From: Lingula anatina
Taxonomy: Eukaryota > Animalia > Brachiopoda
Direction of reading: 5' to 3'
Length of the DNA: 64,000 nt
Assembly (NCBI GenBank): GCA_051362555.1
Contig: CM120640.1
Location: forward strand, 41,146,788 to 41,210,787
The first letter of the stretch is position 1. Each line of letters starts with the position of its first letter. Below the pieces are notes generated by a model, which saw nothing but the letters and a program-made list of their open reading frames with translations, was not told the DNA's origin and did no database searches. The position numbers were made by a program, and so were the translations under genes. Shown piece by piece: positions 4,501 through 53,537 of the stretch.

Positions 4501-5008
4501 TTACTTTGTTGCCTTATGCTGGCAGAGGATTGATTTCAGAAACAGCTTTCTACAAAGACGGTACTATTTTTTTGAAGAATAGCAAGGAAAAATACAAAAA
4601 TTAGATTTATGAGAGTTGATGTCATGATGGACAAAGACCCTTTTAATATTTGAATGGGCATCGATTGTCTACCATGTCAAATTTAAGTAAAAAAGTTGAT
4701 TGATGTTTCAGAAAATTGGTTCCACTTTGAGGAAAAAAATTAAACTGACTTCACTCTAAGAAGACATTACTCAGTTTCAGGTCATAAAGGTGTGTGTTCA
4801 CACATGACTTTTGTGGACTGAAAATGGCCTACACTGTGAATCATACAATGAAGTTACAGGGAGCCCACTGACAATGACAAATTGACATTACTTTTCCAAA
4901 TGATAAAAAGTTAAAGTATATGATTTGATTTTTTTACTTAACCTTCCTGTAGGTACAACATGTGTACTAAAACATTTTGTGACTGAAACCTTTTTTTCTG
5001 TCTTTCAG

Positions 5009-5161
5009 CAGCCCGTGGTGAAGAGCAGTGCACATGTCCTTTGAATCGTTTCCAATGCGAGCCGGTGAACAGTGGGGAATGCACATGCATCCCTAAGCAC
5101 TGGGTGTGTGATGGAGATCATGATTGCGAAAATGGAAATGATGAAGCTCCTGGAAAATGTG
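5009..5161 (+). CDS. LRP4: LRP4 exon, LDLa repeat 1
   Basis: tttcag|cag acceptor and G|gtaag donor; [45 protein letters not shown]. Confidence 0.92.
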
Positions 5162-8100
5162 GTAAGAATACGCGGGCATGTATGTCGGCACATGCCCAGT
5201 ATAAATGTGCTCAAATGTTGATTAAGTACTGAATCTTTTAAAACTGTGGTAAACCTTTATGGAAATATTCTTGTATTGTCTTGCATGGTGATTTTACCTT
5301 TTGGTTTTTTAAACTGACAACAAGTGAGAAAAAATGAAAGGAAGAATTACTGAATGTAGACATGTGAAACAATATTTTTAATTTTTTTACTTTTAAAACT
5401 ATTTTTTCTAAATTTGATGAATAGGCAGTTGCAGAAAAAAGTGATGACACTTTTTATCAAATGTCAGATTAAGTTAAAGTCATGACACCAGCTCAGGATA
5501 TATGTCCTTTGTGTAGAAGATCAAATAGGTTGTAGATGCCTACCGTCTTGTAGAGAGCCAGTGTCCAAGTTCAGCTCAAGTTCATCTGATCCATCACTTG
5601 AAGATAGAACATCTGTAAGGCATGCGTTACAGGTGTGGGTTTGTGCTTTATCATGTCCTGCCATGTGGACCACTGGTGTGCAAACCAATGAACAGTTTTT
5701 GTTTGCATTATGAAATATGTAGTGTCCAGACACATGAGTTTAGATAGCAGTAAAGGTATCTTGTTTTTGTAATCATTTTGTATCATTTCCCCAATCAGCC
5801 TTATCCCCCCTGCCCCCACACCTCCCCTCACTCCTTCCTCTTTTCTGCTACTAATATCTAATTTTATCTGACATGATCACCTTGTGGATAGATACAATTA
5901 ATGTAGTATTTCAGAATCCTTACATACAATTTTAAGCACCATTGACTCTACTGATTTCAGACATACATAAGAAAAATATTCAGGAATCCTTTAAGTCAGC
6001 CGTTAAGTAGCATCTAGGAATCCTAATATTTTTCCTCTGTCAAAGCAAACTATTTAGAGAAGAGACAAGGTGTCTGCTTACATACGTCATGTTTTGCCTT
6101 ATCGCTCCCATCTCAAGTTGATGTTTCTTTTTAGCGGCATGTATTACGAGTCTGATGTCACCATTTTGAGGAAAATGTCTTTATATCCAGACTTGTGTCT
6201 CTTTATCAAATTGGTTTACGTTTATCTGAACATTTTCAGAAGATAAAGACCGAAACACATGCAATGATGTTGGGGTGAAGTATTAGTTGTATCATATTCA
6301 GTTTAAGTGTATATTTCAATAAAATCAATGAAATCAAGTATTCTGGAAATTGCTGATGAAGGAAAGTTCTGGTGGCCCTGGCTGTATGTGGAGAAGCTTC
6401 ATCCTGCTGAATGCATTATGTTTTCTTGTCAGTCTGATTATTTGATTTTATTCCATGAGGACATGGGTTTTTCAAATTCAGTGTCCTTTCATATCAAAAG
6501 ATCTCTAACATTTTTGTCTCTGTTCTTTCATATAACTTTTATCACCTCTTCAATATGAAAAGGAAAAGAAAAAAAGAAACATGCAAAAAATGCAAAGACC
6601 AAGGACACTTTATCAACTCAAGGACAACTTTTGCCTGGAAAAAGGGTGATATATCCCTCTTGAAACATTCCAGAAGGTGATGAAGAAAATGGCTGTCAGG
6701 ATCCAGAGACTTGACAGAGATGAGCATTGTGGAAAATTAAATTCATATTCTGTTTTTTCTCAATAAAATTCATATTCTGTTTTTTCTCAATATACCATAA
6801 TAATGCCTTTAAGAAAAAGTGAAACCCTAACATATGTAGCAGTGTTAGGTGATGTGCTGTTCATGACAGTACAACTAGAATAAGGAAAACCTTGTATATC
6901 ACACATACTGTTAGTGCTGTATACCAGTCTTAGGCCCATAGCCAGAGGGGTTTGGGGGGGGGGGGGCGGGGGTTCAAAAGAACCACCCTTTTTGTCAGAA
7001 AAAGGTCAATTCTGAGTAAAATTTGATCTAGGTACACAAAAGTTTTATTGTAAAAGGTCCACTTTTTTTTTTTGAAAAAGAACCCCCTCCCCTTTAAAAT
7101 TGCTCGCTACGGGCGGGCCTGGGTCTTGATCATTATTCCCCTTTTCACAGCCTTGCTGATTGAAGGGGAACTGGAATGTTAGTGATGGTAATACAGCAGC
7201 ATTTGAAGAGAGAGAAAGTAAGGTCAAGTGGGTTAGAGCTAGTACAAAAGGAGGGGGGAGAGAGTGTTTGTTGTTATTGGCTTGGATTATTGTAGATTGA
7301 TATACCTATAAAAACACTGGCATGTAATCAAAGTGCTGCCATTGTTTTGGCTGTGGAGAGCAGGTGGTGTTGTTTGCTGAAAGTGAGACTTCACTGAGTG
7401 CTCATCTACGGATCAGATTGAGTGGAAAGAAAAAGAAAAATCTAAACCTGGGGAACTCGAACATGATGAAAAAAATGTTCTATAATAATGTTGCAAAATT
7501 TTAAGTAATGTTGGATTTGAGAAATTTTTGATATTTCAGATGCATATTGGAACTGAAATTGTATCTCTATTGAGCTGTGTTTCATGCTAGTTATATTGGG
7601 AACACATTCATTTATTAAGTCTGGAGCAAATAGTAACATCTTGGCTCAGAGTACTAACTGTAGTATACTTTGAGTTAAGTTATACAAAATCAGCTGACAT
7701 CAGTAATCAACCCACATCTTTTCTGTTGATTATTTGACAAACTGGTCTCTGTGGTCAGTACTGGTCAGATAGATTGGAGATATGATGGTCAAGCTGTCGC
7801 CAGACAGACGTCTTTTTTATCTGAAACATTTGACCAAAGGTCAGTGTATCTGATCATTACCATGTCACTTGTGCTGTGCCATGAAAATTATCACATCACG
7901 GTGGTGAATATGTATATTTATTTTTCTCTATTTAATTGTCTTTTCTTAAATTACAGGGGATTTGAAATATAGAAACTGGCGCAGTTAGCCCAAATGTTCA
8001 CACTTTGTTTGCCATAGCACATTGGTGACATTGATAAAATGCACTGTCCATTATGAAGATGGCTCAAGAGGACTGACTTGATGGTCATCTTGAAGGCTGA

Positions 8101-11100
8101 AATGACCAGTGCTAGACATCAGACCTGACCCTGATGTGTCTTCTTCCATAGGAATTCTAATCAGAGTAATTCTACTCCTGCCAGACCTGTTTTTATGGCA
8201 GAACATCCATCAGAAAAAAAAAAGATTTGGATAAGGTTCAGATTTTTTTCTCATCTATTTTCTCCTTGGATGTGGTAATGTAAATGGCTGAAATGTAAAC
8301 CTGGCATTTAAGACTGGTTGCAAATTGAGTTCAATTAATGACATGTATTATGAATTTAAAGTGGATGAATCCATAGTAATTTTATACCAATGACTCAAAG
8401 GCCCCTAATGATTACTTTAGTTACAATGGAGTGATGTGTGAACTCATCCTACACAGGTTTAATTTGATATCAGATGTATCTATCAAGTAACATTCTAAGC
8501 AATACTCTTCCTGTTGAGCAATCTGAATTTCTTACCAGATATGAAATTCAGTGGATTGAATGAAGCTCAAGTGGGAAATTAAAAAAAATGAAATCATTTC
8601 TTTATTCATACTCCAAATATTTCGTTACTTCAAGGTGGTCCCGTTTATGGCAGAGGGCTTGTCAAAGTCATTACACTAACACTTCATGCTTCCCCAGCAT
8701 CTTTTTTAATGACTTCAACTGAAGTGATGTGGGCTCACTTGTTGTCATTATGCTCTTTGTCCACCCCTTTACACACCACACAGGGGTGACAGATAGATGT
8801 TAAAGGGTTACCAGTTTGGTGACAGGAACACTGGCAGGGGCATTTATGGCTCTACACACATGAGAATATGATAGGACTTTTCTTTAAAAAAAAGCCACCA
8901 TGAATAGTTTGCCATATACACATGACTTGATAGGATGCAAAATTGCTGTGTAAGGCAGGTGGCCCTGTTTGCTAGCTAGATAGACAGTGATGTACAAGTC
9001 TGCTTTATTGGAGACCTCTTGAAAAGATTTTGAGGAAATTAATCAATGTAGTCTTAAAGGCATTCTTAAAGGCCAAGTGATGGTGCTTGTAGTTGTGAAT
9101 GATAATTTTGAACACCACATACACAGCAAATTGTATATATCAGTAATATGTGTGTATATGTACTACAGGGAGAAAAGATCAGTTCAGGATTGTACTGACC
9201 TAAAAGACTAGGTATAAATTATTAAACTGACTGAACTTGTTTATTCATAGAAATAGATAATATATATAATAATATAGAAATTAGGCTTTGACTCCATTCT
9301 TTGTCATCATTATTGTAAGTCTTTTCTAAAATTCTTGGCCACCAAATTTCCATTTCTAAACACTCAAAGGTTGACCAGATTCAGCCTAGCACAACTACTT
9401 TACAACTTCAATCCTCATCACAATTAATTTTACACTTAATCAGATTAATTGCCTATCTCCTATATACCATATCGTGCTTATTTAATCCACCTATAACACC
9501 CCCTGTGAAAGGAGGGGTGAAAGTGGTCATCCTGTCCCCCTCCCCGTCTCAGTGATACTGTGCTGTGCTGATCCTCCTCAAGATGTGGACATTACAGATG
9601 AGAGGAGAGTAATCCCGCCATGTCTCCTTACACATGACTCTGGAGTAGGGCCCTGAGTGTTGACAGGTGAGGGTTTAGGGAGGTTTGACTATAGAGCTGC
9701 TGAATTAGCCTTTTTCATCTTTTCCGGAAATTGAAATTGCATTGTGGGAAGGGGAGCCCTGCTACGTCGAAACACTTACAGCGGTGCTAAAAACCATGGC
9801 TGAGTTTACGTGCTTTTTGTCCCGCTACTACAATAACAGTAAGCGAGATCGACACATGAGGTTTAATAAGTTCCCAACAAACCCGTTAGAATGAAAAATA
9901 TGGTAGAAAGAAAGGAAAATTTAGCAGGTTTGGATCAAAAGCAGGGCACCGCGTTTGCGCTGAGCATTTCGAAGGCGGGAAGAAAAACTATAATATTAGG
10001 AGATCAACGGTGCTTTAATAAAAAACAGAAATGCTTAGTTAAACAACGGATATAACGAACTATCGGCAAATAGAACTCGGGGGTAAAAAATGCGAGAAAA
10101 AAAATTATAAAGATTTGAAGTAAAAAATGAAGAATAGGCCGGGGCCTAAAAATTAAGAAAAGACTTCAAGCATGAGATTATGGAAAAAGAAAGTAAAAGC
10201 TGTGAAGTTTTACACGGGGGTTCTACTTACAAAAAATTCAAGAACTTTCACGCCTTTTTGTGTAACAACAAAGAGAAGGTTTGAAAAGTTTTGTATGTAA
10301 TATCCTTTTTGTGTGTGTTTTATTGATAAGTGATCATTTTAAATGTTGTAGGCCCATCACAGGTTTTAGTCTCTAATAACCCTTAGCAGGGTGGGTTCTA
10401 TTTTTTTAACGTGAGACGTTAATAAAATTTATATTATTATGTATTCAATCCCGTATACGTATTACTGAATATTATCAAGATCAACAGAGACATACGAAGA
10501 AGAAAGTACATCGGCTCTTGTTGAACGCGTTATCGGCGAAATAAAAAGTTATTTATTTCTGAACTCAATGACAAGAGAATTGGAAAATACAAAAAATGCA
10601 GAAAAGCCTTTCTGTAAGCTACACGTACATAATACATGTATGGTAAAGACAAAATGGATAATAAACATAATCCAACAACGTATTTGTAAAGTAATACAAA
10701 TATGCTTAGTATTAAAGTAGGCCTACGTATATTTAACTGTCTTAGATAGTTGAAAAATTTGAAATGTGTGGGAAACACTTTATTTGAATGATTTAATTGT
10801 GTGTGATTGAAAACGATGAAAATACGCATGAAAACATTTAAAAATCAAATAATTTGGCCTCTTGCTACAATTTTGTTTTTGTTTCAGTTTGACCAAATGT
10901 TCATACTTGTCAGACCGAAAGGCTGACATTTTTTACCTGTCGTAAATTTTGTACATATAGGCCTACTAGAGTAAGACAAGGTAAACTTTAATTATCGTCT
11001 GGGAAAGAGTCGAGAATTCCTGTCTCACCTATTTAACACTTAAAAGGTTTTAATTACAGAGGAAAGGTCGTAGTTGTGGCCGCTCGCCTTACCGAACAAT

Positions 11101-14100
11101 TGAACAAGTAACACCTGATGCCTTATCAGGTACCAAACGATTTAATCAGTTCACCGACGAACGATCTGCGTGTCAGTTTTACCTGTATACACAGTAGCTA
11201 CGAGTCAAACAATGCAGAAAATCTTTTCATTTTATCACTTTAAAAATCTCTTAAGATATCCTTCAAACAAGACGTAAAAATCGTAATGAATTGACACTGC
11301 CGGTACATGAGGTGATATCGCCACAGCTTGCATATATACATGTACAAAATTGTGAAGAGGTAGGCCTGCGCACCTGTCCACACTCTTGAAAGCTGTGTAC
11401 GAGTCTACTGGCTTTTTTATTTTACACATGTATATATAAAAAATAACGAGTCTCTTTCGCATATCTTTATTATCGGAAGCATTTAAAAGAACTCCGAAGC
11501 TTTAGTTCGTCATCACTATTGAAAGTACAGCCAAGGCTCGGACGCTTAGGTGAAGTCTAGTTGCAAAGCGCATCGTATTTAAACTGAGAAAGAAAATATT
11601 TAATTGCTTGATTCTCCGTCCAAATAGCTGTTTCTTGCCTACAGTTTACGCATTTCTGTGCTTCAGCCACCTTTTTAGTTTGTCAGAAAGCAATGCACGC
11701 TTCATACGACCTTTTTATATGCGCACCTTGTACATCATCTACACCTAGCATTGCCATGCTGGAAACAGCAGAGGACCACTATGACCCCTGTGGCGCGCGG
11801 TTCCTGTCATGCGCACTTCGTATTTCCGCAAAAGATGAAAAAGGTCTATACCAAATGAGAAGATTACCTCATTGCCTCTGCTTTACCTAATGGGCTGAGG
11901 CTTGCACCCTGGGTTTCAGGGGCTTGTAAACTGTGGATGGGTGTGCCAAGGATGGAGGTGAGTTTCCAGTGATCTTTCAAACTCGGGGTGGAGTCTGGTT
12001 GACAGGTAGATGACTTATGGGTCCCTGAATTAAGTGCAGGAAATGATTGGTCTAGTAAATTATTACTTCCTTGGTATAGCAGTATTCCTACTGGTAGATA
12101 TGCTGTGGTTTTCCCTTTGTTTTATTATTACTTCCTAATCGGTGTTATCTGGATTAAGCAGGGATGTGATGATGTATGTTTACCTGCCATCTTTTTATCA
12201 GATAGAATCTAATTATTTTTTGATTAATTTATACTGATAGGTTAGCTTGTGAGGAATTTGCCTTTATCCCAGTCCACCTGCTTGCATTTTATCATCAGTC
12301 TTTTTGTTTTTGTGTATAATCTGTATTTCACTATTTCAAATATGCTATCCTCTGAAAGTATATTTTTCTCTTTGTGAATCTGTTCACAAAGTGGTTGTGC
12401 ATGAGAATTTATGAAAAAATAGATTGATCCATGTAGCTTTGGAGGAAATGTTTAGACGAAACTCATTCGTAAAAGAGAATACAAGGATATCCGGCTGCAC
12501 TTTGAAGAGATATCAAGTGCGTTTTTATAGCCTGCCCGGGTTCATTGTTTTACAAGAGAATCCAATTCATTTACAATAAAAAACAGGAAACTAGAATCGT
12601 TACTAAAAAATTTTACAAGGTGAAATGAATGGAAGTATGATTGATGGGTGTCCAAGGTAAAAAAAAAGCTGCAGTAACCCATCTTCATGAAAGGTAGATT
12701 GATTAGCTGTCCATCTAGGATATTTCAAGTAGAATGACTGCAGCGTTACATGCTAATACAGATAGCATCCTAGGGTGAGACCACACAAGTTCGATATCAG
12801 CTTAAATATCCTGTATCTTCTTTAACACCACTCCGCACAATCAGAACAGCAACCACACATACTATTGGAGATAATAAGCAACTCCAAATGTTTTTTCTAT
12901 AAATTTTGACATGATAATCATTCAACAAGCAGGGCTGTGATTGAGTAGAAATTGCTAATCTAATCATAACAGGATATTTTTTTAATGGGTCTCTCTTCAT
13001 GGTGTAGGCTCTTTTGTTATCTCTGGGTTACAGGTAGATGTACAGGGGCGGGTGATATTGTGGTTCCTGCTGATAACACGATGTCTAGACTGTTACTTCA
13101 GCCTCCTGTGATGATGCTTTTATTATTAAATATAATATGTTTGCATATCTGGAAGATGTTGATATGACAGCTGTGTCAATAACAAGTGGGTGTCTGGATG
13201 TACGCCCCATCTTGTGATATTAAGTGTTTTGAAGAAATGGTGAAATTATGAAGATTGATAAGACTTTTTCACTCTCTCTTATGCTAAGATTGTAAGGCTT
13301 TTTTACACCCTCAGTATCAAATGACATTGAAAAAGATAAACTTTGAAACACGTAAGGGTAGACACACACTGAGATATATTTGATTTTATCATGTAAAGAA
13401 ATAAACTGACATTTTTTTAAAGGATGGGAATAGATCAGTAACAATTTTTATTAAAAAAAAAACTGATTTTGGTGATAGGCCATAATGAGGAATAAAAACA
13501 CAATTGGGGACAGTTATAGCTAATGGACTTCAGGAAAATACAGCTTGCTCAGCGTCCTCTTCTTCTCTACTCTAGATCCCCCTACGTGTGGAGCAGACCA
13601 GTTCAAGTGTTCCAATGGCAAGTGTATACGTCAAGACTGGATATGTGACGGAGATAATGACTGTGATGACCGCAGTGATGAGATAAGCTGTGGTAAGATA
13701 GTAAAGAATGTTTTGACAACTTAATTGACATGTATTCATGTTCTTGACTAACCACTACTTTTGTTCATTCATTTTTAGTGTTGTTATAGGACTATTTTTC
13801 CATATGTTGTATTTCCAGCTAAAGCCCACTCATTAGACAAAGGTTACATCTTCGTATTAAGAATCAGAATGTCTTTAAATAATATAAAATGGCAATACCA
13901 TTTTATTTATTTAGTAAAATGGTACCAATTCGGAAACACATGGGTAACCTACATCTTTTGATCTATCAAATCTTTTAGTTTGTCAAGCTATCCCAAGATT
14001 TTCAGTATGTCAGATGGCATTAGTATGTAAGTTTAGAACTTGGAACTTTGCATCTCTCTGTTGGTCTGTTATTTTCAGTGTAATTTGTCAGTAAACAGAC

Positions 14101-39145: not shown

Positions 39146-42100
39146 TTCATTCAGACACATTGTTTGACCTATTGTGTTCAAAATCGTTTAAATTTAAAAT
39201 TGATTGTCACGATTCTTATTTTAGGTGAAGCTGATAGACTTCTTGCTAAGAAGGAAGGACAGTAAGATGGTGATACTGAAAGTGTGTAAACAAATGATGT
39301 TACCAGACTCCCAGGCCTCCTTACCTGTTATAGCTCAAGTCTTTGACCTCCTCAATGCAGGGTACAGAGAATATCTGGATAAAGAGATCCAGGCTCAGGT
39401 GTGCAGTCTATTTTTATTTAAATTTTGAAGAAGTTTGAATGCTTTGTTCTTCTGTTATTTTTAAGAGTATTTTTTATTTTATGAGCAGCCTACTCATAAC
39501 ATGAAAGAGACATTTCTGACCAATTCCTGATTGGGAGCTTTGTATCCCATTCTGAATTTTTGAATGAATGTTGTTTTATCAGTGTGGCTTATTTTCTTGT
39601 AAGTTAGTTGTAACACTTTTGTTTTCATGTTTTCAGGTGGTAGTACCATCCCTAGGATCAATACTTGATCACCTTGTACCTTATACTGGGGTAGTGCTTT
39701 TGAATTTGATTCTTCTCAATATCTTCCAACACCCAGATACTTACTTTTCTCTGAACAATTTATGTTTCATTTTATTTGAAGAGCTTTTTTATAAAAGAAC
39801 TACATATTCATTTCAGCGACAATGCCATTTGATTACTGATATAATTGATAAGACATGTCTCCAGTCCTTATTCCTATACTCAGTCTTAAAATTGAAATTG
39901 ATTGCCCAGCAGTCCAATCCCTTTACTTACCCTTTTTTTTTCAATCTAACCATATAAACTGCCTAGGTATGCATGCATATATGCCTTTCTCCTGCTTTTA
40001 AATGCATTTTATGTACTTCAAATATTTTAAAAAGATCTATTTGTACATAGTACACATAAAGTAGTAGACAGTGATGTGCAAATAAATCACCTTATTGCAT
40101 TTTATGTTAAAGGTAAACACTGTTCTTATTGTAATTGTAAAATTAAGAAAGCAAAGAAAATTGTTTTATTATAATTATGTAAACTGTATTTGCTTAGAGG
40201 TATTAATCAGCAGGTATATTTCATGTTGTGACATTATTGTATTTTTCAGGCATCAGAGAGCACACAAACTATGGACAATCTACGAGGCAGGAAGGCAATT
40301 ATAGACCAGTCTGATATGTATACACACGTTTTATCTGTGTTTGGAGATAGCAAGGTATGACTCTTTAACAGTCCAGTCTGGTTTCATATTTCTTTCTTGT
40401 TTGACTTAGATTAATTTTTTTTTTCAATTAGAAAAAAATGATTTACTTTTAAGGCTGCTATCTTAAAAGAACCTCGTTACTTCACTAAAGAAAACACTGA
40501 AGTATATATAGTAACATGCAGTCATAATGTTTTCACACCATTGCACACAGTGTTAAACAGAGAAGTTTGTTTGTTATTTTTATTACTTACATATCAAAAT
40601 TTGCCAATTCTCCTGTTTCAGAACATTCACTTCAAATTCATAGTGGCAACCCTGGTGGAATACATCCGCTCCCTGAACCAGGTGTTTATCCCAGTCCAGC
40701 ATTACCTGTATGAACTGGTGATCAACACACTGGTACATCACCACTGCTTTTATCAACTGCACCAGTTCCTGCAGTACCATGTGCTCAGTGACTCTAAGCC
40801 TCTGGTAAGATATAACTGTCAAAGCCTGGGCCCTATCCCACAAAAGAAATCTTTAATTGATTGTAACTCAATAGAAAATAGTGACTGTTGGTGTAAAATG
40901 CTGATCATTTCTTACTTTTTATCTGATAGGTTAGGCCACACTTTTTTAATTTTATGGATGACATCCTGCGCGCGCACGGATTTTCGCCCGTTCTCCAAAA
41001 AAAAAAAAAAAAAAAAGCCCCCCCCCCCTCCCCCAGCCCCCAACGAAGTCGGTTGTCGTGAACGTTGTTATTGAATTTGCAAGGAAATGAGCTTTCTGCG
41101 CATGCGTATTTTCGCCACGTGGAAATGCGGCTACTTTGCTGTCAAATTCATCTCTAGGATTACTTTCAAATTACACAACAATAAAAGTCATAAAGAGAAC
41201 AGGCGCCATCGTTTTGGATTGGTATGCCATTGATATTGGGCATGGAGATATCACCTTTTTACAATTGTGCGAAAGGCTGGCGGCGGCCGAAACATTTCTG
41301 TGACATTCTGTATAAAGCAGCACATTAATACCAGGTTTTCTGTAGCGAAAAAAGGGTCAACAAGGGCGTCGAGGTATTTGGTGGGCTGAAGGTCGGACAG
41401 GCCACCTGACAGTTTAGCTGCTTCGTGTGAGTTGAAGTTGACAAAATGGCATCGTCTGAAATGACCTTTAATAGATTTGGTAGTATTAAGCATATCTTTG
41501 CATCATTTTTTAAACATTTCTGTGAAGTGTTCAAAATGTTTTAATATTCTGAGAATACAAATAAAGACACACTGTTTGATTGATATTTGTTTTATTGATT
41601 GCTATACCAAATGAATGCATGAAATAACCTTAAATAGATTTGGTAATATGAAGTATATCAATTCATGACTTTTTTTACATTTCTACGACGTATTCACAAT
41701 GCTTTAATATTTTGAGAGCATGGATAAAGACATATTGTTAGTTTGATATGTGTTTCTGTGGTTAAATTTGTGTTTCCAGCTGTGTACTGACAGCATTCCT
41801 TTACTTAAGCAGTTTTTTTTTTTTTGGACTGTTTTTTTTTTTTTTTTTTTCGCCCTCTCGCACCGATTTTGGGGTACTCAGAGGATGTCATCCATAAAAA
41901 TAAAAAAGCGTGGCCTTATTTATTTTTCCTATAGTGGACTTCAACCGATTAATTCTTGTGTCCTGAAGATTAAAAAATAGAGAGAAACGTGTTTAAAGTA
42001 TAAAAACATAATACACAAGTTAATACTTGAAAATTAACTCGAACATATTATTTAAAATGCATGGATAGCAATTGAGATGTTTTATGAGTCTTCTTTTTAT

Positions 42101-45100
42101 TTTTATGTACAGACACAGATGTGTCTGTACATATAGCCATCATCTGCATCTGTCGTCGCCGTCGCCGTCGTCGCCGTGCACTTTTACCGATAACACGATA
42201 AGTGGAAAACTGTTTTTTCTTTTGGCTTGAAACTTACAGAACTAATGAATATTCATAATACGCAGGTCAAGTTCGAAAATCAGCATGATCGGGTCACTTA
42301 TAGGGAATTTATGCTGTTTTTTCACTTTTTTCAGCATAAATGAAGCACCGATAACACGATAAGTGGAAAACTGTTTTACTTTTTGGCTTGAAACTTACAG
42401 AACTGATGAATATTCATAATACGCAGGTCAAGTTCGAAAATCAGCGTGATTGGGTCATTTTTATGTACAGACACAGATGTGTCTGTACATATTGCCATCA
42501 CCTGCGTCTGTCGTCGCCGTCGCCGTCGCCGATCATGTCGCCGTCGCCGTGCACTTTCAGCGTTAACACCATAAGTGGAAGGCAATTTTACTTTTTGGCT
42601 TTATATTTACAGAGCTGACTAATATTCATAAAATGCAGGTCAAGTTCGAAAATCAGCATGATCGAGCCATTATTGTAGAATTTATGCTGTTTTTTCACTT
42701 TTTAGCATATATGCAACACTGTTAACACATTTCAAGGAAAACCGATAGGCCTGTTGTCATGAAACTCACAGGAGTAATCAATCTTACTAAAACGCAGATC
42801 AAGTTCAAAATTCGGCATGATCGGGCCACTATTTTAGTAGTTATGCTGTTTTTTCACTTTTCAGCATATATGCAACACTGTTAACACATTTCAAGGAAAA
42901 CCGATAGACCTGTTGTCATGAAACTCACAGGAGTAATCAATCTTACTAAAACACAGGTCAAGTTCGAAAATCAGCATAATCGGGCCATTATTTTATAAGT
43001 TATGCTGTTTTTTCACATTTCCTCAGATTCAATTTTTAGGCATGTTAACAGTCTCATTATTTAACTAATAAGATTCGTAAAAGTGTTTGTTTGACATTTC
43101 CTGCATCTTTACAACATTGTTAGTTGATTATGTAAAAATGAGGGTAAACTTGTTATCATGTATTGTATAATAGAGTTTCAAAAATGGAAATAAACTCATA
43201 TCATTGCAGTTTGTCAGATTCATTCATTCACTATGTTCAGAAACTCAGAATGGAGGAAATTGGACATTAAACACTGTTCTATTGATCTTTTTCCCATCTC
43301 ATCAATTTTCTTAGTTGATCATATATAAATGGCAGTAAATTGTTAATTTTGTTATATGTTAAAAAATTGTTAAAAATGGAAAAAAACACATTTCAGGACA
43401 GTGCTGTCTTGTCTACATTTTGGCATTTTCAAGGTGTGACTTTGAAGTTCCTTGGGCCTGAAGACCTTTGCTAGTCACATTTTCTGAATATCCATGATAC
43501 TAATATTTTATTATTAAAAATTGATGGTAATTATCCTGTTAAACATTATGTAATATTGCATCAAAATTTGAAGACCCCTATTTTGGACACTGCTCCCATG
43601 ATGACCATTTAAGGAAAACCATGTCAATTACTGTTCTCAAACTTACAGGAAGAAACATGGGACTTAAATAAAGCTTCAGTGGGCAATGCAGTCTATTTGG
43701 TAAATTTTTTTGGCAGTTAATCAGTTTTTTGTGAAAATTTAATTTTTCACATATTGGCATTTTCAAGGTGTGACTTAAGAACCTCCACGAGCTTGAAGAC
43801 CCATGCTAATCACATTTTCTGAAAATCCATGATATGGATCTTTTATTATTAAAAACTGATGGTCATTATGCTGTTAAGCATTATGTAATATTGCATTAAA
43901 ATAGAAGAAAACACAATTTTGGGTGCTGCTGCCATGATGACCATTATGGGAAAACCATGTTACTTATGATTGTCAAACTTTCAAAAAAGAAACAAAGGAC
44001 TAAAATGCAGCCTGAGTTGGAAAAGCAGTCTAATTGGCTTCTTTTTCTGGAAGTTATACATTTTAGTGAAATATTCATTTTTATCATGTTGGCATATTCA
44101 TTGTGGGACTCAAAGCTCCCATGGACATGAAGCCAAATGGTAATCAAATTTTTTACATGTCCATGCTATTTATAGTCAATAATCAAAAATTGGTGATAAT
44201 TATTCTGTAATTTATTATGTAATGTTACATCAAAATTGACAAAAATCTTTTTGCACTGCTACTACAAACATTATGAAAAGAAAACTGTGTTACTTATTAT
44301 TATTTTCAACTTACAAGTATGATTTGTAGGATTGGCATGCAGTTCAAATAAGAAAACCAGCTCAAATGGGTTATCATTTATTATTGAATTTAAGCAGTTT
44401 TATGTGAAATTTTTATTTTTCTCATTCTGGCATTTTCAAAGTGTGAACTTAAACTCCCATGGGCCTGAAGCCTTACGCTTGTTACACATTTCACTTACAT
44501 TGGTATTACCTATTGAGCATAATTAAAATTTGATGTTGAATTTGCAGTTAAGCATAATGTACTTTTGCATCAGAATTGACAGTAGCCCGTTTTGTGCATT
44601 GTTATTGTCTGCTTTTTGTCTGTACATTTGACAGCTTTGCTGCCTTGTTAGTGAATTTAGGCTATTTTTTCTCTTTTTTCAGCATAAATGCAGCACCGAT
44701 AACATGATAAGTGGAAAACCGTTTTGGCTTTTGGCTTGAAACTTACAGAACTGATAAATATTCATAATACGTAGGTCAAGTTCGAAAATCGGCATGATTG
44801 GGTAATTTTTTAGTGAATTTGGGCTATTTTTTCTCTTTTTTCAGCATATATACAGCACCGATAACACGATAACTGGAAAACCGTTTTGGCTTTTGGCTTG
44901 AAACTTACAGAACTGATAAATATTTATAATACGCAGGTCAAGTTCGAAAATCAGCATGATCGGGTGACTTGTAGGGAAGTTATGCTGTTTTTTTTTTACT
45001 TTTTTCAGCATATATGCAGCACCGATAACACGATAAGTGGAAAACCGCTTTACTTTTTGGCTTCAAACTTACAAAACTGATGAAGATTCATAATCCGCAG

Positions 45101-47524
45101 ATCAAGTTCGAAAATCAGCATGATCAAGCAATTTTTAGGGGAGTTATGCTATTTTTTCACTTTTTTCAACATATATGCAACACTGATAACACTATATAAG
45201 AAAAACAGATAGGCCAATTGTCATTATACTTACAGGAGTGGTCAATCTTACTAAAATGCAGGTTGAGTTGGAAAATCAGCATAATCTGGCCATTATTTTA
45301 GAAGTTATGCTGTTTTTTCACATTTCCTCAGATTCAATTCTTAAGCATGTTAACAGTCTCATTATTTAACTAATAAGATACGTAAAAGTGTTTGTTTGAT
45401 ATTTCCTGCATCTTTACAACATTGTTAGTTGATTATGTAAAAATGATGGTAAACTTGATATCGTGTATTGTGTAATAAAGTGTCAAAAATGGAAATAAAC
45501 TCATATCATATCATATTGCAGTTTGTTAGATTCAATCATCAACTATGTTCAGAATCTCAGAATGGAGGAAATTGGACATTTAACACTGTTCTATTGATAT
45601 TTTTCCCATCTCATCAATTTTCTTAGTTGGTCATATAAAAATGGAAGTATACTGTTTATTTTGTTTTGTTTAAAAAGTGTTAAAATGGAAATAAACCCAT
45701 TTCAGAACAGTGCTGTCTTTTTTACAGTTTGGCATTTTTAAGATGTGACTTTGAAGTTCCATGAGCCTGCAGATCTTTGCTAGTCACATTTTCTGAATAT
45801 CCATGATACTAATATTGTATGATTAAAAATTGATGGTCATTATGCTGTTAAACATTATGTAATATTGCATCAAGATTCGAAGAAACCCCTATTTTGGGCA
45901 CTGCTCCCATGATGACCATTTAAAGAAAATCATGTCACTTACTGTTATCAAACTTACAGGAAAGAAATGTGGGTCTAAAATACAGCTTCAGTAGGCAATG
46001 CAGTCTGTTTGGTAATTTTTTTCTGGCAGTTAAACAGTTTTTTGTGAAAATTTAATTTTTCACTTATTGGCATTTTCAAAGTGTGACTTTGAAGTTCCAT
46101 GATTCTGAAGACCTTTGCTTGTCATGTTTTCTGAAAGTCCATGTTACTAATATTCTATTAAATAAAAATTGATGGTCATATATGCTGTTAAGCATTATGT
46201 AATGTTGCTTCAAAATAGAAGAAAACACAATTTTTGGTGCTGCTGCCATGATGACCATGATGGGAAAACCGTGTTACTTATGACTGTCAAACCTTAAAAA
46301 AAGAAACACTGTACTAAAATGCAGCCTGAGTTGGAAAAGCAGTCTAATTGGCTTCTTTTTCTGGAAGTTATACATTTGAGTGAAATATTATTAACTTTTT
46401 GGCATATTCATTGTGGGACTCGGAGCTCCCATGGACATAAAGCCGAATGGTAATCAAATTTTCTACATGTCCATGCTATTTGTAATCAATAATCAAAAAT
46501 TGGTGATAATTATTCTATAATTTATTATGCAATGTTACATCAAAATTTACAATAATCTTTTTGCACTGCTACTGCAAACATTATGAAAAGAAAACTGTGT
46601 TACTTATTATTATTTTTAACTTATGAGAATGATTTTTAGGATTGGCATGCAGTTAAAATTAGAAAGCTAGGTCAATTGGGTTATCGTTTATTATTGAATT
46701 TATGCAATTTTGTGTGAAATTTTCATTTTTTTATTCTGGCACTTTCTAAGTATAAACTTGAACTCTGATGGGCCTGAAGCCTTATGCTTTTACTTTGGTC
46801 GGTGTTACCTGCTGTGCATAATTAAAATATGATGTTGACTTTGCAGTTAAACATAATGTATCATTTCATCAGAATTGGTAGTCTCCTATTTTGTGCATTA
46901 TTGTTTTGTGCTTTTCTTAAGATGTGACTTATGGGCCTGAAGGGTTTTTGAGAGGGTCAGTCTGTAAATTTCCCTTGGGTTTCACTTAGCTAAGCTCTGA
47001 GTTATAAAGTAATTTGCCTAATTGATTATTAATTCAATTCAATTCAATTTATTTCTGTACTGGTACATAGATTGTCATGACCTTGTACAATATGATATAC
47101 TAATGATGATACAATACAGTTAGTGCATTACCATCTTTATATAATGGACATACGTATCAGTAAAATTACTCATAAAATATTCTATCTAAGCAATGCGATA
47201 AACCTTGGTGTGATTTTAAATTTACCATAAACATACTATAAACATGTTACACAAAAAGAATATGTTTAAACTTAAAACCAAGGTTACATAGCTGTTTAAA
47301 ACCAGTTTGATGACATGGATAATTACGACTAATGACAATTACATAAGACAGATAAGTAAATAAGTGACACAGATAGGCCATTAAATGATTGGCCATTAAT
47401 AGGCCATTAAATGAGATTACATAAAGCACCTTGTTGATATCTCCCTGTAAACTCCCAAAGGTTAAGCTCTCTGCTAGATTAATAATAAGGAAGCAGTGAT
47501 AATTATGGAGGTAAATTATGCAGG

Positions 47525-47582
<58 letters not shown>

Positions 47583-49777
47583 ACAATTGCTGCCTGGGCA
47601 GAGGTCTGCACTCTCGGAGTGCTTTTCTAGTTTTGTTTATTTTCCTTAATAACTTTTTTCTCAAACACTTGCATTTGTGATATTTAACCGCCTGAAGCTC
47701 TGCACATTTTCTGTATTTCCACATAAGCAGTTGTATGTTATTTATGTTTTCAAACATTATGTAATATTATTTTATGCAATGTTATCATTTTTCAAATATT
47801 GAGACTTTCATCATGTGACTTTGGTCTCTCATGGTCCTGATACTGTAATCTTATTGAAGGGATGGATTGAGACCATCTTCTGGGTCAGCTTCCAGAAGAC
47901 GTTCGGATTTTTAAGTTTATATTGACTGATATTTTTTTTTCTGTTGGAAGATCATAAAAATAGAGGATGGATCAACAAAGATACTTTGGAATACTGTCAG
48001 AAAATATCTCTGGGTCAGCTCCTGTTATTGACCATGTTACCTGTTGTGCATGATTAAAATTCAGTGTTGACTAACAGTGCTATTATAAGCATTATTTATT
48101 ATTGCATCAAAATTGGCAAAATGACCTATTTTGCATCATTATTTTCTGTTTTTTGTCTGTACATTTGACAGCTTTGCTGCCTTGTTTATAGATAAATCTA
48201 AAAGCAATAACAACGATTAAAGCAATAGAAATATTCATCTTTCTTTATTCACATTTGTTGCAGGCTTGCCTTTTGTTGTCATTGGAAAGTGTGTATGCTC
48301 CTGCACACCAGCTGGCTCTGGATATGCTCAAGGTAAGGTCACTATGTTTAGAGGTCCATATGCTTTGGATTAAACCTCAGTGATTTTTGATTTAAATTTT
48401 ACTGCTATAGTTCCATCAAATACATTACCAGAAAAAAGCTGTGTTTATTGACTTTTAGATTTTTTTCATAGACGATTGTAGTCCAGTCAAACATGATAAA
48501 CATGATAAACATTTCATATCAAATTTTAACTATACTAAATTAAAAAAGCAGTTAGACAGGGCATTTAAGATTTTGAATAAATGTCTTTCACTTTTTTAAA
48601 AAGAGATTAAACACAGCCAATGAAGAGATCATTGAAGTATTGCTGTCAAAACACCAGTTGTTGTCTGCCTTAAGGTAGGGCATTATTATTATTGTTATTA
48701 TTATTATTGTTTGATTGCTGTTTATTGGAAAATATACGTTTTTCCTTGTCTAAGTTAACTTAATGAAAAGTAACTGAAATTGAAAAAGAAAGTTCTTACT
48801 GGTAACAGTAAAATATAAACAGTTATAATGCTGAGAAATGTATATGCAACATATTTCTGTCTCTGCATTTTACATTTCCTTGTTCTTATTTATGGACAAA
48901 CACACACTCGGCTGTCACCTTTATTGAATAGTAAACGATTGTCGTAAAATCGCTATATGATTTTAAAACCTGGTGCATAAATTTGAAAACCACCTAGAAC
49001 GACCTTAAACTGCCACATTAATCTAATACAATGCAAAAAAAAACCTATCAAAAGTGGTTAAAGCATTCAAACCTAATGTCGTAAAGTCCCCATATACCCC
49101 ATAGAGATAATAAAATATAAAATTGACAATCGTTTACTATCCAATCAAGGTGACAGCAGAGCGTGGACAAACATAATACTGGTCTGTATTAGAATTGTTT
49201 TAGCTGAAAGCTTAGTAAATGTGACATAGGAAATCAAGTGAAAACTGTCATGCACAACCAACATCTTGCCTCCAGGTTTATCCGCAGTGTGGGTGTGGTG
49301 GACACAGTGTCAGCAAGGAAGTTCCTAGAGGCAGCCAAGCAAACAGGGGACAGCATGCTGTTCTATACAGTGTACAAGTTCTTTGAACAGAGGAACATCA
49401 GAATGAGACAGGTCTCCAAGTTTGCTCCAGGTCAGTTTTCTCTCCACAGTCACCCTTTCCTCAATCCAACCACACTAACACCACCATCTTCCCCAGAATT
49501 AAATAGTATAGACTCAAAAATGTTGAAATGTGTCCAGTTGCTCTTTATACCAGGTAAACAAATCATCATTAGCATTGCCTCGCAATATAAATTCATCAAA
49601 TCTTCTACATTACCAATATTACATGCACACATTTAAGTATGTAAAGCCATTTTACTGAACAGAATTATAACAGTTCCCTCACATTTTCCAACTCCAGGTG
49701 AGCACTGTGAGCCCTATGTCAAATATTTTGAAGGACTTTTTGGAGCAGATGCCTTAATGCCTTCTGTGCCCTCCTGA
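33423..49777 (+). CDS. RMC1: Regulator of MON1-CCZ1 complex (RMC1/C18orf8/MIC1), complete, 19 exons
   Basis: Exons 33423-33542, 33880-33956, 35149-35233, 35434-35577, 35822-35893, 36165-36233, 36626-36729, 37353-37439, 37659-37764, 38052-38163, 38528-38578, 38759-38871, 39225-39398, 40250-40354, 40622-40804, 48264-48332, 48604-48674, 49276-49430, 49698-49777. Translation includes NVFFDETNKQVFAVQSQGATGVVVKGPDD, GRFAVNLVDN, FYQLHQFLQYHVLSDSKPLACLLLSLE and VSARKFLEAAKQT, motifs recognised from RMC1/Mic1. Confidence 0.94.
36762..36942. mobile_element. Fold-back palindromic MITE in RMC1 intron 7
   Basis: ACAACAAAGTTGATCTGCAGACTAAC pairs with GTTAGTCTGCGGATCAACTGTGTTGT; inner GCATAATCCCC pairs with GGGGATTATGC. 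Confidence 0.7.
38579..38758 (+). other. U12-type (minor spliceosome) GT-AG intron in RMC1
   Basis: Donor GTATCCTTT matches the U12 consensus; branch site CCTTCTTAAC about 11 nt before CAG; no polypyrimidine tract; splicing restores ELEL-Y-SPNWIVFQP in frame. Confidence 0.9.
39098..39151. repeat. (TTTA)n microsatellite
   Basis: Directly visible. Confidence 0.95.
40934..41915. mobile_element. Non-autonomous PIF/Harbinger-like transposon (982 bp)
   Basis: About 34-bp TIRs GGCCACACTTTTTTAATTTTATGGATGACATCCT / AGGATGTCATCCATAAAAATAAAAAAGCGTGGCC; TTA on both flanks (TWA TSD); CpG-rich. Confidence 0.85.
42459..44648 (+). mobile_element. Helentron/HINE-like family 1, inner copy nested in the outer copy
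   Basis: Complete 5' head and 3' tail; removing it rejoins GATTGGGTCATTT..TAGTGAATTT, matching the intact repeat unit near 44796-44820. Confidence 0.85.
47030..47340 (-). mobile_element. Possible 5'-truncated LINE 3' end
   Basis: Minus strand ends AAATAAATTGAATTGAATTGAA (poly(A) signal plus short tandem tail); no convincing ORF. Confidence 0.3.
47527..47580. repeat. (AT)n microsatellite
   Basis: Directly visible. Confidence 0.95.
47856..48024. mobile_element. MITE family B, copy 2 (decayed, nested in Helentron)
   Basis: Collinear with 32884-33051 (GAGGATGGATCAACAAAGATA, CTGTCAGAAAATATCTCT); TTATT 5-bp duplication on both flanks. Confidence 0.8.
48903..49165. mobile_element. MITE of 263 bp with about 41-bp TIRs and 8-bp TSD (hAT/P-like)
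   Basis: CACACTCGGCTGTCACCTTTATTGAATAGTAAACGATTGTC / GACAATCGTTTACTATCCAATCAAGGTGACAGCAGAGCGTG; GACAAACA on both flanks. Confidence 0.88.
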
Positions 49778-50806
49778 CTAGTGCAGGAATTAAAGCACCT
49801 GCAGGAGCTGGAAAAACGACTGGATTTATTTTAAAGAGCAACTGTTACCTATTTATTTGTGGCAGAAGTGACAACTGTAATGTAGAGAAGCTAAACAGAG
49901 AAGTCATGTTTCTGGTTATAACTTTTAGAATAATTTTGCTCAAAATTAAAGACATTAATAGGAATTAAAGACTTTTTGTGGCAGGAGCTTGAAATAACAA
50001 ATTTGAAGAAAACAATACACATTTTGGCAAAAAGAAACTGACAGCGATCAAGATTCTGTGAATATGCAATGGAATTGTTACTACTCCCTTTGGTATTAAT
50101 AATTTTTGTTCATGGAAGATTCTATCAAAGCTTCCAGTGAGACGGACCTATTCAATGAATATGAAGTCTCAATTATTTAAGTGGCAGACAGCCTGACCAC
50201 AAGAATAAATACTGATATGAAAATTTAATAATAGCTAGTACCAGTGCAAAGTCGTGAAGGAAAAAAATCAATTCCCCTTCGGCAATGTTGAGCTGGAAAT
50301 TCATTGCAAGATTATAATACTGTAGTGATTGTTTGGTGGAATCACTATCAGATTGTAAATATAGACATAGGATTGGCTGCAGGAGTTATACTCCCACTAA
50401 TGATTGTAATTCATACAGCAGCAATATTACTATATTTGTAGAGGCTGGTATGCATCTTTGAATAATTTGGTATTAAAAAGGTTATTCTCTAAAGTTTTTC
50501 AAAAGCAAGATTTTGATTGGTAAGTTTCAGTTTTTGAAAAAGTAAAACATGTTCATGGTGGTAAAATTTGCAAATTCCTTCCACAAAACCATTTAAGAGA
50601 AAATCTGTTTGTTAAATTCTCTTTAGTGATTTATATGGGATCAATATCTGAACCATTGTGAATATTATTATTCTGTAAATGGACTTGAGATAATAAATGC
50701 AATGTCCAGTTTTAAGATGGGATTATTATTTTGCATTTCCAATAATGAGAATATTTCAAAACAGAAATTTTATCCAACCTTATATTTCAATGTGACAAGT
50801 GAAACA

Positions 50807-53537
50807 TTTTTATGTACAGACACAGATGTGTCTGTACATATTGCCATCACCTGCGTCTGTCGTCGCCGTCGTCGCCGATGGCGATGCCGATGCCGATGCC
50901 GATGCCGTGCACTTTCCTTGTAAACACAATAAGTGGAACACAATTTATTTTTTGCTTTTATATTTACAGAACTGATGAATATTCATAAAACGCAGGTCAA
51001 GTTCGAAAATCAGCATGATGGGGCCATTATAGTAGAAGTTATGCCGTTTTTTCACTTTTCAGCATATATACAACCCTGTAAACACATTTAAAGGAAAACC
51101 ATTAAGCCTGTTGTCATGAAACTCACAGGAGTAATCAATCTTACTAAAACGCAGGACAAGTTCGAAAATCGGCATGATCGGGCCACTATTTTAGTAGTTA
51201 TGCTGATTTTTTCATTTTTCAGCATATATGCAACACTGTAAACACAATATAAGAAAAACAGATAGGCCAATTGTCATTAAACTCACAAAAGTGGTCAATC
51301 TTACTAAAACGCAGGTTGAGTTCGAAAATCAGCATAATCGGGCCATTATTTTAGAAGTTATACTGTTTTTTTCACATTTCCTGAGATTCAATTCTTAGGC
51401 ATGTTAACAGTCTCATTATTGAACTAATAAGATGCGTAAAAGTGTTTGTTTGACATTTCCTGCATCTTTACAATAATGTTAGTTGACTATGTAAAAATTA
51501 TGGTAAACTTGTTATCGTGTATTGTGTAATAAAGTGTCAAAAATGGAATCAAACTCATATCATTGCATTTTGTCAGATTCAATCATTCAGTATGTTCAGA
51601 ATCTCAGAATGGAGGAAATTGGACATTTAACACTGTTCTATTGATATTATTCCCACCTCATCAATTTTCTTAGTTGATCATATAAAAATTGCAGTAAACT
51701 GTTTATTTTGTTTTATGTTAAAAAAGTGTTAAAAATGGAAATAAACCCATGTCAGAACAGTGCTGTCTTGTTTACATTTTGGCATTTTCAAGGTGTGACT
51801 TTGAAGTTCCATTGGCCTGAAGACCTTTGCTGGTCACGTTTTCTGAAAGTCCATGTTACTAATATTTTATTATTTAAAATTGATGGTCATTATGCTGTTA
51901 AACATTATGTAATGTTGCATCAAAATTTGAAGAAACCCCTATTTTGGGCACTGCTCCCATGATGACCATTTCAGAAAAACCATGTCACTTACTGTTTTCA
52001 AACTTACAGGAAAGAAACATGGGACTAAAATACAGCTTCAGTAGGCAATGCAGTCTGTTTGATAAATTTTCTGGCAATTAAAGTTTTTTGTGAAAATTTA
52101 ATTTTTCACATATTTTTCAGCTTATATGCAACACTGATAACACAATATAAGAAAAACAGATAGGCCAATTGTCATTATACTCACAGCCACAGGAGTGGTC
52201 AATCTTACTAAAACGCAGGTTGAGTTTGAAAATCAGCATAATCGGGCCATTATTTTAGTAGTTGTGCTGTTTTTTCACATTTCCTGAGATTCAATTCTTA
52301 GGCATGTTAACAGTCTCATTATTGAACTAATAAGATATGTAAAAGTGTTTGTTTGACATTTCCTGCATCTTTACAATATTGTTAGTTGATTATGTAAAAA
52401 TTATGGTAAACTTGTTATCGTGTTTTGTGTAATAAAGTGTCAAAAATGGAAATAAACTCATATCATTGCAGTTTGTCAGATTCAATCATTCAGTATGTTC
52501 AGAATCTCAGAATGGAAGAAATTGGACATTTAACACTGCTCTATTGACATTTTTCCCATCTCATCAATTTTCTTAGTTGATCATATAAAAATGGCAGTAA
52601 ACTGTTAATTTTGTTTTATGTTAAAATTGTTAAAAATGGGGAAAAAACATTTCAGAACAGTGCTGTCTTGTTTACGTTTTGGCATTTTCAAGTTTTGACT
52701 TTGAAGTTCCATGGGCCTGAAGACCTTTGCTAATCACATTTTCTGAATATCCATAATACTAATATTTTATTAATAAAAGTTGATGATCATTATGCTGTTA
52801 AACATTATGTAATATTGCATCAAAATTTGAAAAAAACATATTTTGGGCACTGCTCCCATGATGACCATTTCAGAAAAACCATGTCACTTACTGTTCTCAA
52901 ACTTACAGGAAAGAAACCTGGGACTAAAATACAGCTTCAGTAGGCAATGCAATCTGTTTGGTAATTCTTACTGCCAGTTAAACAGTTTTTTTGTGAAACT
53001 TTAATTTTTCACATATTGGCATTTTCAAGGTGTGATTTGAAGTTCCACGGGCTTGAATACCCATGCTAGTCACATTTTCTGAAAATACATGATATGTATA
53101 TTTTATTATTAAAAATTGACGGTCATTATGCTGTTAACCATTATGTAATATTGCATCAGAATAGAAGAAAACACAATTTTGGGTGCTGCTGCCATGATGA
53201 CCATTATGGGAAAACCATGTTACTTATGATTGCCAAACTTTCAAAAAAGAAATACAGGACTAAAAATGCAGCCTGAGTTGGAAAAACAGTCTAATTGGCT
53301 TCTTTTTCTGGAAGTTATACATTTTCAAAGTGCGAACTTGAACTCCCATGGGCCTGAAGCCTTATGCTTGTTACACATTTTACTTACATTGGTATTACCT
53401 ATTAAGCATAATTAAAATTTGATGTTGAATTTGTAGTTTAACATAATGTACTTTTGCATCAGAATTGACAGTAGCCTATTTTGTGCATAGTTATTTCCTG
53501 CTTTTTGTCTGTACATTTGACAGCTTTGCTGCCTTGT
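50807..53537 (+). mobile_element. Helentron/HINE-like family 1, third copy between the convergent RMC1 and ELOVL genes
   Basis: Same 5' hairpin, microsatellite and 3' TGTCTGTACATTTGACAGCTTTGCTGCCTTGT; about 0.9-kb internal duplication. Confidence 0.85.

Follow-up and report, generated by a model that had tools for sequence, protein, structure and literature searches.

ISL2EU is described as a group within the PHIS superfamily (Han et al. 2015, PMC4482050; Han et al. 2014, PMC4122938), and its hallmarks are an AT target-site duplication, a THAP-HTH-DDE transposase and a second ORF coding for YqaJ (PMC4482050, PMC4122938, PMC9179366). The available portions of PMC4482050 and PMC4122938 hold no mention of a THAP11-type THAP domain, an HCF-1 motif or an SBS2-like end motif. 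Embryogenesis requires THAP11/Ronin, which is also a disease gene; it is the SCA51 gene (PMC13631171), and its F80L substitution is described in a cobalamin disorder. A 2023 paper traces Ronin to a P-element ancestor (PMC10329844), and the available part of a 2026 review of THAP proteins mentions P-element likeness alone (PMC13631171). THAP9, related to the P-element transposase, and HARBI1 are likewise vertebrate genes domesticated from DNA transposases (PMC5753468, PMC3424704); THAP9 keeps a P-type catalytic domain and HARBI1 the Harbinger DDE domain, whereas THAP11 would be a domestication of ISL2EU that lacks a catalytic domain. No link between THAP11 and ISL2EU was found in the open literature, as distinct from Repbase reports, subscription papers and supplements; the link is also absent from the available text of PMC10027918, PMC3424704, PMC5753468, PMC10824691, PMC13228809 and PMC7786948, and in the available portions of the literature surveyed no human gene is credited to ISL2EU. 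The link set out below is real; it is apparently unreported.

The window, the whole 64-kb stretch of Lingula anatina DNA analyzed here, contains a previously undescribed non-autonomous ISL2EU element at 9706-11847. This stretch is best explained as a dead, internally deleted copy of an ISL2EU element with a THAP11-type parent transposase, and vertebrate THAP11/Ronin probably descends from the front half of such a transposase. The element and its surroundings comprise the following features.

4987..5229, plus strand: stop-to-stop frame containing the LRP4-like host gene's upstream LDLa exon (domain search)
9704..9705, no strand: left target-site duplication, AT (empty-site joint)
9706..11847, no strand: non-autonomous, internally deleted ISL2EU-type DNA transposon, 2142 bp (2.14 kb) (empty-site joint, depth)
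9706..9740, plus strand: left TIR, with first bases more decayed than those of the right TIR (inverted-repeat pair, end alignment)
11813..11847, minus strand: right TIR, beginning AGACC (inverted-repeat pair)
11848..11849, no strand: right target-site duplication, AT (empty-site joint)
13524..13721, plus strand: stop-to-stop frame containing the LRP4-like host gene's downstream LDLa exon (domain search)

The element sits in an intron of the LRP4-like gene, between LDLa exons near 5100 and 13640, and the best PDB match of this host gene is LRP4. The TIRs are about 35 bp long, with a core pair at 9709-9740 and 11813-11844 that is 84% alike by inverted-repeat detection. Contigs from three of four DNA runs of the same organism contain an empty-site joint from 9703 to 11848, which skips 2144 letters and has two letters that fit both sides; the element is therefore placed at 9706-11847, flanked by AT, and is missing from this site in other haplotypes, making it a presence/absence polymorphism at the LRP4 intron. 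The flank at 9300-9703 is itself highly polymorphic, with 15 differences in 404 bp (run X1). Read depth over the whole element is approximately 70-300 times that of the flank in run X1; depth does not equal copy number, however a depth this far above the flank indicates a multi-copy family. Elsewhere in the window, 42100-53540 holds large nested repeats, both tandem and segmental, which reach 2 kb in length and are 75-94% alike; they lie within an RMC1-like gene (Pfam RMC1_C at 40442-41071 and 49208-49633) and extend past it. At 58900-60200, units of about 146 bp that are 89-94% alike are arrayed in tandem.

The 2-bp AT duplication and the TIRs are common to ISL2EU and this element, and so is a transposase with THAP, HTH and DDE regions, of which the window copy keeps colinear remnants and its closest relative has all three. 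The copy in the window differs from described ISL2EU in being internally deleted, in having ends that begin with AG rather than the usual GG, and in its target context, which has the A on the left but A instead of T on the right (AT-A) of the preferred A-AT-T; YqaJ is seen only in relatives. The full A-AT-T context is found in the related loci L013 and L034, and the ends of the window element align with those of other ISL2EU elements. The assignment to ISL2EU is supported by the AT duplication together with the related elements that carry a convergent YqaJ ORF. Three other identities were rejected: PIF/Harbinger proper needs a 3-bp TWA duplication and a Myb/SANT second ORF, whereas the duplication here is the 2-bp AT and relatives have YqaJ; Kolobok elements have a TTAA target duplication, not AT; and P elements would carry Tnp_P_element behind the THAP domain, where the relatives carry DDE_Tnp_4.

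Within the element, the coding remnants are arranged in the order of a transposase.

9796..9903, plus strand: N-terminal half of the THAP domain, transposase residues 1-36, with mutations of the second and third Cys in its CC-x3-C start (translation, alignment)
9908..10039, plus strand: C-terminal half of the THAP domain, together with its basic tail (residues 45-88), following a 20-bp deletion and with stops from 10016 (alignment)
10097..10260, plus strand: end of the coiled coil and FYTG region, residues 185-236, frameshifted (E 0.01, 0.11)
10520..10582, plus strand: C-terminal DDE piece, residues 465-490, with VERVIG and the last catalytic E (E 0.09)
10590..11780, minus strand: expected position of ORF2 (YqaJ nuclease), remnants by eye and not significant (controls)

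The ATG of the N-half at 9796 lies 90 bp inside the left end, and this half is broken by stops at 9892 and 9904; the C-half runs from 9908 to 10015 in a different frame, as 4 bp stand in place of residues 37-44 of the Lingula relative, and this net loss of 20 bp accounts for the frameshift. Each half alone matches only the THAP11 structure 2LAU among 177,635 PDB sequences (E 0.012 for the N-half, 1.5e-7 for the C-half); this likeness to THAP11 is beyond chance. The N-half alone has no Pfam match, and two word-based protein searches with the THAP remnant returned no matches; read through with an X at each break, the domain scores 27.1 bits, above the Pfam THAP cut-off of 23.9. The Lingula transposase maps colinearly onto the element through residues 1-36, 45-88, 185-236 and 465-490; the later pieces are weak alone (E 0.01-0.11), with the piece at 10520-10582 reaching E 0.002 when searched in the element alone. 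None of the 19 non-THAP fragments of the element, nor either of the pieces at 10097-10260 and 10520-10582 by itself, matches Pfam, and a viral sequence collection holds no relative of the element. SAP-, SWIM- and YqaJ-like remnants of ORF2, picked out by eye, were rejected as 8 of 141 control windows score as high. An earlier note, made from the sequence alone, had proposed that frameshifted, stop-broken THAP peptides occupy 9796..10018, about 100 bp inside a TIR of a transposon within LRP4; all of this is borne out. Its further statement that they lie upstream of Harbinger-type DDE remnants is correct as to the colinear pieces, but these are small and without a Pfam match, and the element is not PIF/Harbinger proper.

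The copy in the window encodes nothing functional: the HTH and most of the DDE core are deleted, and the HCF-1 motif and most of the coiled coil are also lost. It is a broken, multi-copy, TIR-flanked sequence in which the THAP part is followed by FYTG and DDE pieces, and not an intact single-copy ORF of a host gene. Other copies keep residues lost here, with Gly3 and Cys11 present in DNA contigs and both Cys codons in three RNA reads from other copies. Loose read ends translate to the segment deleted in the window copy; in run X12 they are the Lingula transposase's own residues, on both sides of the zinc-binding His. Nearly all first mates of run X12 are on the minus strand, which in most stranded libraries denotes a sense transcript. 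RNA reads over the THAP part are few (58, 10 and 8) and in two of three runs mostly less than 95% alike, so transcription cannot be ascribed to the window copy; among the datasets listed as containing the stretch, none is recorded as RNA.

A search with the C-half against 1.84 billion representative proteins gave nine matches at E<=1e-3: seven THAP11-type N-terminal THAP domains, one multi-THAP brittle-star protein, and one repeat artefact without a THAP domain (P0004), which was rejected. The best real match is a Lingula anatina transposase (72%), whose cluster-mate contains THAP, HTH_Tnp_4 and DDE_Tnp_4 over 511 aa; a 608-aa Ixodes transposase contains the same three domains. Related transposases in ticks fall into clusters with 37, 12 and 6 members, some of these proteins recurring unchanged at several loci, and the catalytic D-D-E is retained in all five full-length THAP11-type transposases. 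The layout in the Lingula and tick relatives is THAP, linker, D/E-H-x-Y, coiled coil, FYTG, HTH and DDE; THAP11 matches the first four parts and ends before FYTG. The protein P0007 of Amphiura filiformis (938 aa) has four THAP domains of intermediate likeness to the THAP11-type group and no DDE, and is possibly an independent domestication. A transposase fragment from Rhipicephalus microplus (P0016) bears the NCBI name 'THAP11-like', which shows automatic annotation already taking such elements for THAP11 by mistake.

Thirty-three metagenome loci were collected, including one fish THAP11 and many ISL2EU elements. These elements carry a related THAP domain and a convergent YqaJ ORF, and YqaJ was found in all six nuclease-like ORFs tested from related loci. 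The wider related ISL2EU group has the same THAP-coiled coil-FYTG-HTH-DDE layout. L013 is a complete ISL2EU element with 67-bp TIRs and A-AT ends; L034:1694-4096 is a 2.4-kb deletion derivative of animal-type ISL2EU with 58-bp TIRs, on a contig filed as a bacterial MAG, which is likely due to host contamination of that genome. L018, L020 and L029 represent an ISL2EU family with introns in the transposase and a D-H-T-Y motif; the insertion in their THAP loop has a THAP11-like length and a different sequence, and the family is possibly a deeper branch of the same lineage.

The likeness to THAP11 extends to the parent transposases and beyond the THAP domain. Among PDB sequences, THAP11 is matched at 116 bits by the full-length Lingula transposase and at 114 bits by that of Ixodes, compared to 13-15 bits for THAP2 and for 2JM3, which we take to be the C. 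elegans CtBP-type THAP; a profile of seven transposases with no vertebrate row scores 149 bits with THAP11 vs 25, 22 and 14 (THAP1) with the other solved THAP domains. Human THAP1-10 and 12 and the Drosophila P-element THAP were compared by this PDB score where solved, outside the trees. Identity to dog THAP11 is 58-70% for the THAP11-type transposases, 46-59% for 11 of 13 other ISL2EU THAP domains and 33-43% for outgroups. THAP11 and the THAP11-type transposases both have a seven-residue THAP loop that most other ISL2EU THAP domains lack; among the latter, only L018 and the frameshifted L026 have an insertion at the loop; F80 is invariant across THAP11 and the parent transposases. The HCF-1 motif (HBM) is defined as D/E-H-x-Y, and the HBM and coiled coil are described as common to most human THAP proteins (PMC13631171). 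D/E-H-x-Y is present in all eight THAP11-type transposases, followed by the THAP11 coiled coil in register; HCF-1 binding is predicted from this motif. An HMM of 104 vertebrate THAP11 C-termini gives these eight 4.5-25.2 bits, from D/E-H-x-Y onward, with six of them beating all 200 shuffles; the 13 other ISL2EU proteins score at most 3.1 bits, and three unrelated THAP proteins at most -0.3. The motif is not exclusive, being present in L018 and in the P-type loci L032 and L033 as well; the THAP proteins at L032:1914-2501 and L033:106-750 (the latter of P-element type) suggest that HCF-1 motifs may be widespread in THAP transposases of different superfamilies. A match to the THAP11 coiled-coil structure 5AJS (E 0.11) was set aside as not specific, being no better than that of unrelated coiled coils. 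In comparison with THAP11/Ronin (2LAU, 5AJS), the parent transposases thus agree in the seven-residue-loop THAP, F80, D/E-H-x-Y and the coiled coil, with order and register preserved; THAP11 is without FYTG, HTH and DDE, and the copy in the window is a piece of a pseudogene carried by a mobile element. Shared ancestry of THAP11 and these transposases is well supported and considered highly likely.

The direction of descent is less firmly fixed. The mixture-model THAP tree and the THAP-only AU tests used a set of 42 rows, with 10 left out as near-duplicates or, for one row, as frameshifted. Under a mixture model the THAP tree places vertebrate THAP11 in one clade (92/95), sister to a Lingula/JGI/ENA/window group (87/80); plain LG+G4 yields a scrambled interior with Lingula nested inside fish. 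With the HBM-coiled-coil block added, and with outgroups, L018 and the window row left out, vertebrates group with the THAP11-type transposases (99/98) and with the Lingula group (94/96); the transposases are monophyletic in 2% of bootstraps and vertebrates fall inside them in 98%. In the THAP-only tree the grouping of vertebrates with THAP11-type transposases is not the best topology (AU p 0.47). AU tests do not reject all transposases as one clade without vertebrates (p 0.20), vertebrates with P-type THAP domains (p 0.31), or the THAP11-type transposases as one clade (p 0.11 and 0.16), and a DDE-domain tree does not recover Lingula and tick transposases as a resolved clade (24% of bootstraps). 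The direction from transposon to gene is only inferred, as AU tests reject no alternative rooting; it is nonetheless the more economical direction and likely the correct one. The earlier note had proposed that THAP11 may descend from an ISL2EU-like lineage still alive in invertebrates: the grouping and the living lineage both stand, the latter through multi-copy tick transposases with intact D-D-E and the Lingula THAP-HTH-DDE protein, with direction resting at the strength just given. It had also regarded the remnant as THAP11-specific rather than generic THAP, which agrees with 114-149 bits for THAP11 vs 13-25 for other THAPs; its interpretation is supported because the best matches resemble THAP11 far more than they do other THAP domains and the fuller-length relatives possess the THAP-HTH-DDE fusion.

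Two other histories would produce a similar relationship. An old bilaterian THAP11 ortholog could have donated its THAP-HBM-coiled-coil part to an ISL2EU transposase; the root position left free by the AU tests and the failure of the DDE tree to join Lingula and tick transposases are compatible with this capture, and DDE-less invertebrate THAP11 orthologs could lie beyond the best 120 of 462 matches listed, most of which are vertebrate and among which THAP11 is found from sharks to mammals. Against it, the entire surrounding ISL2EU group has THAP11-like THAP domains and the common layout described above, all invertebrate matches listed that exceed 130 aa and have a single THAP11-type N-terminal THAP show FYTG/YYTG or DDE motifs, and vertebrates sit inside the transposases in nearly all bootstraps; capture in this direction is considered unlikely. 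The origin from a P-element ancestor asserted in PMC10329844, by which the likeness to ISL2EU would reflect only the common ancestry of all THAP domains, is kept by the AU test that joins vertebrates to two P-type THAP domains, a result attributed to the very long outgroup branches. THAP11 is however only 33-39% identical to P-type THAP domains, far below its identity to the THAP11-type transposases, no P-element THAP occurs among the PDB matches listed for the transposases or the profile, and the ISL2EU lineage is the only one with which THAP11 has the loop insertion and the in-register homology of the C-terminus in common; a P-element source is therefore judged highly improbable, and domestication of an ISL2EU front half is preferred to both histories.

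A separate question concerns a motif at the element ends that resembles the binding site of THAP11 itself.

9738..9757, minus strand: SBS2/M4-like (THAP11/ZNF143) motif, 14 of 17 positions, ACTAC module decayed, at an offset as in related ISL2EU ends
11801..11812, plus strand: weaker SBS1-like core near the right end, pattern fitted post hoc, 9 of 17 positions against SBS2

The inner end of both TIRs of L034 has a 14 of 15 match to the Ronin-binding motif of PMC10329844 (two matches, 0.07 expected), and matches with at most two mismatches are also present in L004, L005 and L027; there are none in the 64-kb window at this threshold. For the paper's 13-mer with two mismatches, 3.35 matches are expected per 64 kb. 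Scored with a 17-position SBS2 pattern modeled on PMC3627581, the upstream regions of ISL2EU loci reach 13 or more in 7 of 24 cases, in one orientation throughout, several loci lacking the end; the left end in the window scores 14 and the right end 9, and background tiles score at least 13 in 7 of 440 cases. The pattern was picked after L034 and L002 had been seen, near-duplicate loci reduce the sample to about five independent families, and 8 of 35 loci were left out of the scoring because their upstream DNA was scant or missing or the start of the THAP domain was unclear. A degenerate pattern covering both ends (3 matches vs 0.27 expected) was fitted post hoc and is not counted as evidence. 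The left ends of L002, L004, L005, L008, L011, L013, L017, L019, L027 and L034 share a cassette of TGACGTCA, GC-rich and SBS2-like words, with ATGGCG at the start codon in some; it resembles a housekeeping promoter.

The SBS2/M4-like motif of these left ends may be a site for the transposase or a host ZNF143 promoter element, and the two readings are considered evenly matched. As a promoter cassette, with a ZNF143/Staf site beside CRE-like and YY1-like words driving two convergent genes, it would explain the presence of TGACGTCA and ATGGCG in the ends, presumably CRE and YY1 words. Both ends of the element lie upstream of an ORF, and the window keeps the ZNF143 half of the motif while the ACTAC half is decayed; ZNF143 is reported to bind a nearly identical 29-base motif (10.1101/2024.05.13.594008). 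Decay runs the other way in L034, the right end of L013 and L017, which keep the ACTAC module as the ZNF143 tail decays, and different families place the motif at similar distances inside the end. Published work has THAP11 binding the ACTAYR module (PMC5006282) and, in vitro, its THAP domain on its own binding both SBS1 and SBS2 (PMC3627581), which favors a transposase site; a promoter cassette has an equal chance of being correct, and this bears on the end motif only.

The window copy makes no working protein and, from what is known of the family, was likely moved in trans by the parent transposase. The parent would bind the ends via its THAP finger, likely pair them through its coiled coil, and cut with its DDE domain, leaving AT. 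Under domestication from ISL2EU, one transposase copy would have lost HTH-DDE before the split of sharks and bony fish; the truncated copy, cut before FYTG, would then have been kept as a DNA-binding, dimerizing, HCF-1-recruiting transcription factor. A more tentative hypothesis takes the SBS2/M4-like motif, which lies 31-42 bp inside the ends, for the THAP site of the ancestor, passed on as the promoter motif of THAP11. The fullest version, in which THAP11/Ronin is a domesticated ISL2EU front half that inherited its THAP finger, HCF-1 motif, coiled coil and DNA motif alike, the ultra-conserved M4/Ronin motif at the promoters of vertebrate housekeeping genes being an old transposon-end site and promoter looping a reuse of end synapsis, is a speculative extension that we hold to be possible yet somewhat doubtful.

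If descent from ISL2EU is true, THAP11 would be a human gene derived from ISL2EU, and a superfamily different from that of the P element would be named as its source, with living relatives; close relatives of the THAP11-type transposase are still multi-copy with intact catalytic residues in ticks. The shared HCF-1 motif and coiled coil suggest that HCF-1 recruitment and dimerization predate domestication, and the finding bears on why THAP11 and ZNF143 recognize nearly the same promoter motif.
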